A stretch of DNA of 63,907 bases, filler included, from Rhabdomonas costata (taxonomy: Eukaryota), in NCBI GenBank assembly GCA_019059605.1. It is 32 parts of 32 records of this genome, joined end to end, with 100 filler letters (N's around TTAATTAATTAA, not from the genome) between each part and the next. Parts side by side here need not be neighbours in the genome. Positions count along the whole stretch, not along the records: positions 56,035 to 57,930 come from JAHMHO010007643.1; 31 more parts are not named here. One strand, 5' to 3'. Position 1 is the stretch's first letter. Each line of letters starts with the position of its first letter. The notes under the pieces are model-generated. The model worked only from the letters and a program-made list of their open reading frames with translations, ran no database searches and was not told where the DNA came from. Made by a program: the position numbers and the translations under genes. Positions 56,036-57,930 of the stretch are shown one piece after another.

Positions 56036-57930
56036 TGTTGGGGTGATCCCAAGGCCGCGTCCCGAGCTGCAATGCAACGTGGTTTGGGTTCAAAGCTTTT
56101 CCTACAGCGAAAGCTACACTTTTTGTATGAGCCCCTTCGCGCAAAGTACGTTCCTGTTCATGCGACATCAGACCGAGAACATCGCGATACCATGTATGAG
56201 CTTCTGGGACGGATCATGGACGAACTTTGCACTTCGCCCTCTCCAACCAGCGACATTCCCACCGAGCTTATTCTTTCATCAGGAGGAACGGGCAAGACTT
56301 CAACAGCACTATTGATTCAAGATCGATTACTCGCTCGACACGGGGAGACTTCCCACTCCATACACGGCATTTTTCTGTCCTTGCCACTGGTAGGCAACGC
56401 CCTCCAGGACCTTCCTAGTCTCACGCACTACTTCCAAGTCTCTTTAAGCCTTTCTACCGATGACTTTGATGACGCTGAGGAAAAAAGCGTTGTTCTCATT
56501 TGCGATTCTTGGGACGAAGTGGGGCCTGTCGTTCGGGAAAGTGTGATCAAAAACGGGGGCCTTGTACCGCTCTTCCTTGGCCTTTTTAAGGCTGCTTTAA
56601 AACATGTTGTGGTCACATCTCGCCCAGAGGCCATCACCCACAACCTGGCGGTGCTTGGACGCCACGCAAGTATTAGAGAGCACTGGGTGACTCCCTTTGA
56701 GGTTGCAGATTTTGAACAGCTGGCTCGCCTCTGGATGACTCGAGCTGAGTTCGAAAAGATCAATACCGAGACTGGAAAGCTCAAAACCCGTCACGATGCT
56801 GAAGCGCGGGAAATGCTCTCTGCGGGAATGGAATGTGGCGGTGGATCTGAGGAGCGCCGCTTGGAGGCTCTGCGTGGGATGAGATCTGCACGGCAAATCA
56901 TGGTATCCAAGTACGAGCAAGAAGCCAAAAGTCAGGCAGCCGTCGTGGGTGGCGAAAAAGGCGAAAAGCTGGTGCAACGAATCAGCGAGGTTCCCGAGCT
57001 TCGAGGACTCACTGCGCTTCCTGTTTTGGCAACGATGCTGTGCACGGACGGAGATGTTGTTCTGGAAGAGATTGAACAGAAGCCACGGAACCAGGCCCTC
57101 AATCGCGGGGAGGTTTATCGTATGGTATTTGAAGTTCGGCTGAAGCGAGAGCTTGAGGCTCGGCTTCAGAATACTCGAGTGCCCGAAGGAATTTCTGATG
57201 CCACAGCAGATAGTGCCAAAGCTTCGTGTCAGGAGATTGCCATACGAATGAGCACCCGACGCGAAACTCAGTTGCCAATGAAGGAAGTTCGGGAAATCTT
57301 TTCAAGTTGCCTGCATTCATGTGTCCCTGCATGTCAAGACTGGGGGGATGGTAATGATAACCTCGAGGTGAGAAATGTTATAGACGTTTTGCTTCTGTGT
57401 TCGCCACTTCGGGTTGGTAGACTTCGAGAGATGAAAGCATCAGTCTCATTCTCTCACCTAAGTATCCAAGAATTTTTTGCAGCACAGCTTTTTGTTACGG
57501 AGCCGTCGATTCTGTGCAGAAAGCCGTTCTCCCGAGTTCTTGATCTTCGCGGCTTGCCAAACGTTCGGGCTTTTGTACGGGATTTGTTTGTGCACCTCTC
57601 GCAGGAGGTTCAGGAACGCTGGATTCAGACGCTGCGTAGTTTTGTCGAAGCAACGAAGGGAGACAAGCATCCCGCAGGAGAAAGCTTGAATGATTGTTGG
57701 GGTGAAGAGCCTGAAGCTGAGCGGTGCCGAGTGGCTTCCAATGCGATGTCTCTGATTGCTTCCGTTGACTACGTCCTTAGCAGATGGGACTTTTCGGGGT
57801 GCCGTTTCCCAGGTGCATACCTCGATGGCATGCAGGTGTTGCACAGCGACTGGAGAGGGGTAGATCTCCGCTTTAGCATTTTCACACGGCCCCGGCTGGT
57901 GAAAATGCTAAAGCGGAGATCTACCCCCCC
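56036..57930 (+). CDS. NACHT (STAND) NTPase followed by pentapeptide repeats, NLR-like; intronless and open at both contig ends
   Basis: Walker A SSGGTGKTS, Walker B VVLICDSWDE, sensor VVVTSRPE, HD1 PVLA, winged helix SFSHLSIQEFFAA, then ASNAMSLI...WDFSGCRFPGAYLDG...DWRGVDLR. Confidence 0.92.

Follow-up and report, generated by a model that had tools for sequence, protein, structure and literature searches.

The window analysed here is a 63,907-base stretch of DNA from the assembly of Rhabdomonas costata, in which 31 identical artificial linkers (N44-TTAATTAATTAA-N44) separate 32 contigs of 1885 to 2021 bp each. One of these contigs, delimited by the linker positions (56035 to 57930; 1896 bp, GC content 0.521), carries on its plus strand a long open reading frame (ORF) for an NLR-like protein, which we describe below as the window protein. 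The frame encodes the linker that joins an ADP-ribosyltransferase (ART) domain to NACHT in related proteins, followed by a NACHT module that has all four of its parts (nucleotide-binding domain, helical domain 1, winged helix, and helical domain 2) and in which the Walker A, Walker B, and sensor-1 motifs are intact, and by about eight pentapeptide repeats. Judged by sequence and predicted structure, it represents a genuine NACHT STAND NTPase module, divergent but complete.

The frame is open from position 56036 through 57928, that is, over 631 codons from the first to the last base of the contig. It starts and stops there because the contig itself does so, with an artificial linker on either side (55935 to 56034 and 57931 to 58030). 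A chance ORF was rejected, as the two remaining plus-strand frames contain 33 (frame 0) and 20 (frame 2) stops. The last nine codons (57902 to 57928) are probably a fold-back assembly artefact and should not be trusted. Indeed, a repeat search revealed a perfect 29-nt inverted repeat (57857 to 57927, with arms at 57857 to 57885 and 57899 to 57927) ending 3 nt from the contig end, and the closest relative, the R. costata protein P0003, matches the window protein through RPRLV and departs from it exactly at the start of the second arm. We therefore regard about 622 codons as real (56036 to 57901, plus strand, 5' end open), a stretch that is collinear with P0003 (52% identity over 496 columns) and with a second R. 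costata protein, P0002. The original prediction made for this locus had counted more than 630 uninterrupted codons, which stands for the open frame but not for its final nine codons.

All features of the protein lie on the plus strand. Close to the start of the frame is a linker helix (LHFLYEPLRAKYV; 56114 to 56152), which the family alignment places between ART and NACHT and in which the valine is invariant in all nine aligned sequences. The Walker A motif or P-loop (SSGGTGKTS, residues 81 to 89; 56276 to 56302) has G, G, K, and T residues that are likewise invariant in 9/9 family sequences. It matches GxxxxGK[ST], the first position being a serine rather than a glycine or alanine in the subfamily of the window protein. 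NACHT domains are defined by a Walker B motif with an acidic pair (hhhhD-x-x-DE) and by a sensor-1 arginine (TSRP-like). Motif placement and profile alignment located both, namely, Walker B, whose acidic pair is of the NACHT type (VVLICDSWDE; 56489 to 56518), and the sensor-1 strand (VVVTSRPE; 56606 to 56629). Their counterparts in the cyanobacterial NACHT proteins of the profile comparison are LDGFDEV and LTSRP.

Residues 246 to 317 (56771 to 56986), which separate the nucleotide-binding domain from helical domain 1, form a helical insertion, modelled by AlphaFold as two helices (residues 246 to 266 and 272 to 317). This insertion of about 70 residues is common to R. costata and the small-contig relatives from ENA, i.e., to an R. 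costata-like subfamily, and no counterpart was found in the Euglena gracilis, Diplonema, or cyanobacterial sequences of the family and profile alignments. Helical domain 1 itself is marked by LPVLATML (57017 to 57040; motif placement and profile alignment). The most conserved stretch of the family, as judged from invariant columns and the profile alignment, is the winged-helix region (LRVGRLRE...FSHLSIQEFFAAQ; 57407 to 57487), within which the winged-helix motif FSHLSIQEFFAAQ was placed at 57449 to 57487.

Helical domain 2 ends in ASNAMSLI (57734 to 57757), which corresponds to the motif A[AS]NA..L of the family alignment and directly precedes the repeats. From 57785 to 57901, the protein reads as about eight pentapeptide repeats (WDFSG CRFPG AYLDG MQVLH SDWRG VDLRF SIFTR PRLV). 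Repeats of this class are tandem pentads with a hydrophobic residue at the centre, and they fold into a right-handed beta-helix. The centre of the pentad is hydrophobic in 8/8 of those in the window protein, the AlphaFold model has strands with a period of five in this region, and the pentads align with the part of the E. gracilis protein P0013 that carries Pfam Pentapeptide. These repeats are the superstructure-forming C-terminal repeats seen in the window, and a WD40 array is visible only in relatives. Every element that had been claimed at the outset, from the full set of NACHT motifs to ASNAMSLI and the pentapeptide repeats, could be placed by coordinate, with profile and fold in agreement.

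The predicted fold points to the same family. An AlphaFold2 model of the window protein, built from a 17-sequence family alignment, reached a predicted local distance difference test (pLDDT) score of 88.3 and a predicted template modelling (pTM) score of 0.85. When it was compared with the PDB using Foldseek, the matches listed (ranks 1 to 50) were NACHT NLRs throughout, with a probability of 1.00; among these listed matches, NOD2 (5irm, E value of 1.4e-10) was followed by NLRC4 (4kxf), NLRP3 (7alv), and NLRP1, 2, 7, 9, and 14.

At the level of sequence, a search of prokaryotes (one genome each from 185,579 species) returned 11 distant relatives of 21 to 31% identity, ten from cyanobacteria and one from a betaproteobacterium, and nothing above 31%. 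The Pfam NACHT profile was passed by 5/5 of those scanned. We then compared the family profile A2 with profile A5, which represents ten of the prokaryotic relatives (five of them Pfam-scanned, all five passing PF05729). The hhalign probability was 99.2%, with an E value of 1.2e-19 over 324 columns, and the match spans Walker A to the winged-helix motif (query residues 75 to 488). In addition, BLASTP aligned the window protein with E. gracilis P0013 from the P-loop to sensor-1 (E value of 2e-10), and the nearest clusters by ESM Atlas features were bacterial proteins with NACHT and pentapeptide repeats (score of 0.96). Both the profile match and the NLRs retrieved by Foldseek thus bear out the initial description, in which the protein is of the NLR-like NACHT-pentapeptide type and comes from a protist lineage.

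To define the family, we used HMMER against 1.84 billion representative proteins (E value of ≤1e-3) and obtained 17 matches: four from R. costata, two from E. gracilis, one from Diplonema papillatum (KAJ9461234.1), nine from unnamed ENA entries, and one JGI TPR protein, which matches at the P-loop only. The R. costata relatives are 52 to 57% identical to the window protein, and nothing above 57% was found among these 1.84e9 proteins. R. costata has at least three distinct and divergent paralogues, unlike the single-copy housekeeping gene that had been envisaged as an alternative; the proteins at 52 to 57% identity could be either paralogues or orthologues from related species. A word-index homologue search gave one match, P0002. 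Scanning JGI metagenomes with the window protein alone gave no match, and scanning them with alignment A4 gave one locus, L001, at 40% identity.

The relatives extend beyond both ends of the window protein. P0003 (1143 amino acids; 52% identity with 10 gap positions in BLASTP) has the pentapeptide region followed by 14 regular WD40 units of 42 residues, which share a mean mutual identity of 46%; the WD40 sensor that had been expected from the start is therefore present in the closest relative. P0002 can be aligned to residues 1 to 133 of the window protein (56% identity over 131 amino acids, 3 gap positions) and has, directly ahead of this stretch, a weak Pfam ART match (E value of 0.0038). 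P0002 stops where P0003 starts and their identifiers are adjacent, which suggests that the two are pieces of a single transcript. In E. gracilis P0013, the first 900 residues score 64.2 bits for Pfam ART, 42.5 for NACHT (cut-off, 26.7), and 56.5 for Pentapeptide, while the Diplonema protein P0016 scores 22.4 bits for ART (cut-off, 22.3) and 27.9 for NACHT (cut-off, 26.7). Both harbor 11 to 14 WD40 repeats. The ENA protein P0018 (1504 amino acids) combines Exo_endo_phos, ART, NACHT, Pentapeptide, and WD40, with NACHT just under the cut-off (25.3 versus 26.7 bits) and Pentapeptide passing (31.6 bits). Its Exo_endo_phos domain (endonuclease/exonuclease/phosphatase; residues 124 to 413) stands ahead of ART, so that one NACHT protein carries two candidate effector enzymes.

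An ART domain was found in 7/7 of the long or N-terminal relatives. Within the ART part of alignment A3, the arginine is kept in 7/7 sequences, S-x-S in 6/7 (S-T-T in the remaining one), and [EQ]-x-E in 7/7, and the model of P0002 matches the R-S-E ADP-ribosyltransferases HopU1, 6drh, ExoS, Vis, C3, SpvB, and ART2.2. As read from the sequences of the relatives, the architecture of the family comprises an R-S-E mono-ADP-ribosyltransferase, NACHT, a short pentapeptide beta-helix, and two WD40 propellers with about 14 blades in total. Among named organisms, it appears restricted to Euglenozoa, and public sets carry its members unannotated or as "WD repeat-containing protein." The contig is open at both ends, and ART and WD40 are therefore known through homology with the relatives and not for the window gene itself. 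Consequently, relatives do carry the originally suggested ART-type effector on one polypeptide with this NACHT, a linkage by homology, but the window contig itself does not show it. Three further ENA entries, P0004, P0005, and P0017 (longest contig of 2733 bp in each case), cover query residues 11 to 257, 391 to 572, and 571 to 614, respectively. If all three come from a single contig of 2.7 kb, as may be the case, that copy would contain frameshifts or introns.

We compared the family with four groups of known systems. It resembles the bacterial, mainly cyanobacterial, NACHT-pentapeptide or bNACHT proteins in that the NACHT modules are homologous at the profile level (99.2%) and a pentapeptide repeat directly follows NACHT, as in the nearest ESM Atlas clusters (0.96). 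Pentapeptide repeats are among the bacterial NACHT fusions listed in the preprint by Kibby et al. However, identity to the window protein is only 21 to 31%, the cyanobacterial relatives retrieved end in GUN4, NCH2, or LRR instead of WD40, and none of the 5 prokaryotic relatives scanned, of 11, has an ART. Moreover, the window family belongs to eukaryotes, one relative contains an intron, and the subfamily of the window protein has the 70-residue helical insertion. Antiphage bNACHT and Avs systems reside in prokaryotic genomes, frequently within defence islands. Given this low identity, the intron, and close relatives that are euglenozoan, we rejected membership in these prokaryotic groups.

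With the animal NLRs (NOD2, NLRC4, and NLRP3), the window protein shares the fold and the domain order of nucleotide-binding domain, helical domain 1, winged helix, and helical domain 2. Among the listed Foldseek matches, these NLRs rank best (E values of 1.4e-10 to 1e-6), but sequence identity in the fold alignments is 11 to 14%. They also carry an LRR sensor where the window family has pentapeptide repeats and WD40, and CARD, PYD, or BIR adaptors where the relatives of the window protein have an enzymatic (ART) effector.

A NACHT-WD40 make-up is known from fungal HET-E/HET-D and from animal NWD1/TEP1. As in these proteins, NACHT is followed by a long array of 42-residue WD40 units (14 in P0003), and there are several paralogues per species. 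In contrast to HET-E/HET-D, the N-terminal domain of the relatives is ART and not HET, and in contrast to both groups, NACHT and WD40 are separated by a pentapeptide beta-helix; the comparison is one of architecture. HET-D/E and TEP1 are mentioned in the Kibby et al. preprint. Finally, the ART domain of the relatives passes PF01129, keeps R / S-x-S / [EQ]-x-E, and is modelled with a fold like that of the R-S-E (cholera-toxin-like, ARTC) enzymes (ART2.2, C3, HopU1, and ExoS), but it sits inside a cytoplasmic STAND protein of 1500 residues instead of being a secreted toxin or ecto-enzyme.

The contigs of the window stand in length order from 1 to 63907 and form an artificial chain without physical linkage between any two of them; arguments from neighbours, flanks, or ORF ends are therefore invalid for the NACHT contig. 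Perfect inverted repeats of 21 to 75 nt, no more than 10 nt from an end, were found in 7/32 contigs (1760-1891, 11922-12009, 12120-12175, 34080-34166, 40074-40281, 49841-49943, and 57857-57927). Fold-back chimeras are typical of amplified DNA, and these repeats are probably such chimeras of assembly, with ORF ends and hairpins near contig ends probably unreliable as a result. The window is best treated as a chain of unlinked, amplification-damaged contigs in which neighbourhood or ORF-end reasoning is unsafe. We also noted short dispersed repeats between contigs, at 50198-50266 and 62345-62411 (88% identity over 69 nt) and at 14616-14702 and 50102-50190 (78% identity over 91 nt), which may be an interspersed genomic repeat.

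In our judgement, the contig is probably the middle 40% or so of a euglenid-like nuclear gene for a tripartite STAND (NLR-like) protein of the ART-NACHT-pentapeptide-WD40 family, whose named members are found in Euglenozoa only. Several observations weigh against this. A Pfam scan of the window protein detected no NACHT (PF05729) at an E value of ≤1, its sole match being NLRC4_HD2 (E value of 0.073), and an NCBIfam scan detected nothing. Neither did the protein match PF00805 (Pentapeptide), because the contig end cuts the repeat array. With Pfam and NCBIfam silent on both NACHT and Pentapeptide, the motif reading needed the support of profile and fold. A PDB sequence-profile search gave four NLRP1 rows with E values of 0.39 to 0.72, which are not significant; in this search, the FxHxSxQEF winged-helix motif aligned with the NLRP1 motif. 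In the window, none of the 31 other contigs encodes a relative, the ART part of P0002 has no match in any contig, and R-S-E ART (PF01129) and WD40 are absent. The P0002 model is of low overall confidence (pLDDT of 52; 60 to 86 in the ART core), and the near absence of codon bias in the window ORF (effective number of codons [Nc], 57.6) also fits a little-expressed or decaying copy. Lastly, every functional step, from ligand sensing and oligomerization to ADP-ribosylation and immunity, is proposed by analogy.

How STAND proteins work has been worked out in NLRC4, NLRP3, and bacterial NACHT proteins. By analogy with these and with fungal STAND systems, the window protein is predicted to bind and hydrolyse NTP and to oligomerize upon ligand binding. 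With an ART in front and a WD40 sensor behind in its relatives, it looks like a candidate immune or cell-death receptor of protists. In the mechanism that we propose, the WD40 and pentapeptide end would keep the ADP-bound NACHT shut until the propellers bind a ligand, which could be a foreign or an altered-self protein. Binding would lead to nucleotide exchange and oligomerization, and the oligomer would gather and thereby activate the N-terminal ARTs. The active ARTs might then ADP-ribosylate a target of the cell or the invader, or use up NAD+, with growth arrest or cell death as the outcome. Features reminiscent of conflict systems are present, namely, intact catalytic motifs in both enzymes, divergent paralogues, a variable nuclease-like N-terminal domain, and a toxin-type ART fold. 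Such features are typical of conflict systems according to Kaur et al. (2020) and, likewise, to the Kibby et al. preprint.

A serious rival, although on balance we think it rather unlikely, is that the protein is a genuine member of the family with a regulatory, non-immune role, i.e., a regulated scaffold or signalling ATPase in which ART would be a regulatory modifier rather than the effector of cell death. TEP1 and NWD1 are examples of animal NACHT-WD40 proteins for which such a role has been proposed. That euglenids and a diplonemid have kept the same architecture points to a stable cellular function. Fungal incompatibility NLRs have near-identical, rapidly reshuffled WD40 repeats, whereas the WD40 units of P0003 are on average only 46% identical to one another. 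Nevertheless, the presence of several divergent paralogues per species, the varying N-terminal additions (the extra Exo_endo_phos in P0018), and an ART core resembling toxin-type R-S-E enzymes all speak against such a role.

The original prediction had also stressed that the gene is intronless in an intron-dense genome, and this raises the question of retroposition. The locus L001 contains an 844-nt GT-AG intron in phase 0 (6838 to 7681), flanked by ...DGLQ and VLCSSF...; once the two exons are spliced together, the protein follows the family sequence again. L001 looks chimeric, with bacterial-type genes (295 to 6003, including an NAD-dependent DNA ligase) running in one open frame into the middle of the eukaryotic NACHT relative (6004 to 7843) and probably a second break after 7843. 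At the site of the L001 intron, the window gene reads CAG-GTG without a break (between 57835 and 57836). Its 1866 nt are collinear with the transcript-derived relatives (3 and 10 gap positions) and therefore contain no hidden intron. According to the R. costata paper, euglenid genes have many introns (15 in hsp90, for example), and so a long exon is somewhat unusual. However, P0018 has an ORF of 4.5 kb without interruption on a 5784-bp contig, and long exons may be a trait of the family. The absence of an intron over this stretch can thus be retained, but the contrast with the genome was overstated, as it relied on unlinked contigs.

Two other contigs bear on the exon lengths and codon usage of the presumed host. 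One holds a protein-kinase exon of 397 nt (24519-24915, plus strand; Pfam Pkinase positions 1 to 125 of 263), which is bordered by ...cttcag and gtattt... (AG/GT) and stops within HRDIK of the catalytic loop. A search of 5.8e9 proteins yielded nothing nearly identical to it and no match of comparable length, the best being longer proteins at 29 to 38% identity. The other holds the first half of an ArfGap zinc finger (31804-31968, plus strand; Pfam positions 3 to 57 of 117), which runs into the contig end and is GC rich, with a GC content at third codon positions (GC3) of 0.76. The earlier claim that host exons are mostly under 500 bp thus has one neighbour in its favour, the kinase exon, but the "host genes" in question lie on unlinked contigs. 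Codon usage was described as flatter than in host exons. This is true in absolute terms (Nc of 57.6, GC3 of 0.505) and in comparison with the ORF that holds the ArfGap exon (31276-31971; Nc of 43.3, GC3 of 0.763), but the kinase ORF (24288-25016, exon plus flanking intron; Nc of 54.6, GC3 of 0.486) is indistinguishable from the window ORF. The comparison comprised seven other window ORFs, only two of them confirmed as coding, a sample too small to decide the matter.

That the gene is a processed (retroposed) or decaying extra copy, which lost its introns via an mRNA intermediate and is perhaps unexpressed, therefore deserves consideration, but we judge it distinctly improbable. It would account for the 1866 uninterrupted nucleotides that are collinear with transcript-derived relatives, for the unbroken sequence exactly where L001 has its intron, for a codon bias near nil, and for the lack of any protein more than 57% identical among the representative proteins searched. 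On the other hand, the 622-codon frame is intact and retains every catalytic motif, the similarly uninterrupted P0018 suggests that long exons may be the norm in the family, and the kinase ORF has an equally weak codon bias.

It is very improbable that the contig is a contaminant contributed by a bacterium or some other eukaryote in the sample rather than by the organism behind the other contigs, for although the contig is physically unlinked to the rest of the window and the nearest large clusters by language-model features are bacterial NACHT-pentapeptide proteins, the best prokaryotic relatives are only 21 to 31% identical, the named close relatives are all euglenids, a relative has a spliceosomal-type intron, the GC content lies mid-range among the 32 contigs (0.45 to 0.576), and the terminal fold-back artefact is common to this contig and six others.

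The low prokaryotic identity, the euglenozoan origin of the named close relatives, and the relative with an intron also led us to reject recent horizontal gene transfer along with a bacterial contaminant, and the absence of any relative of the window protein in viral contigs led us to reject a virus-borne origin. The assignment to a bacterial or contaminant bin that had been feared at the outset is not what we find, the contig being not bacterial. Likewise, the idea of a horizontally acquired, retroposed, or mobile-element-borne gene fares poorly, as the four-domain architecture occurs in euglenids and a diplonemid, viral contigs lack a relative, prokaryotes do not exceed 31% identity, and one relative has a GT-AG intron. 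On the evidence, the gene is instead more likely to be nuclear, to belong to a euglenid-like eukaryote, and to have been passed down within Euglenozoa. Its NACHT-pentapeptide core, of cyanobacterial type, may have been captured long ago, which would fit the view of the Kibby et al. preprint that eukaryotes gained NACHT modules several times.

In the literature, whose supplements were not visible, we found no description of euglenid or diplonemid NACHT proteins or of an ART-NACHT fusion. Two surveys from the Aravind group that cover NACHT, ADP-ribosyltransferase, pentapeptide, and WD40 show no ART-NACHT fusion in their accessible parts. The ART-NACHT-pentapeptide-WD40 family thus looks undescribed, and the window contig looks like a fragmentary new member of it.

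Animals, plants, fungi, and bacteria all rely on NLR-type STAND receptors as a central part of immunity, and to our knowledge almost nothing has been described on such receptors in free-living protists. We tentatively propose, as a possibility that goes well beyond what we consider probable, that Euglenozoa own lineage-wide, multi-copy NLR-like receptors, built independently of those of animals, plants, and fungi from a cyanobacterial-type NACHT-pentapeptide core, WD40, and an R-S-E ART executioner that, switched on by oligomerization in response to a ligand, would act by ADP-ribosylation or NAD+ depletion in the innate immunity or programmed death of free-living protists. The window gene would then be a divergent member with the helical insertion of its subfamily. 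If this is true, the ART-NACHT-pentapeptide-WD40 proteins of euglenids and diplonemids would represent an independent invention of the tripartite receptor, and ADP-ribosylation would be added to the enzymatic effectors fused to NACHT. The receptor idea is testable because Euglena gracilis can be cultured and manipulated.

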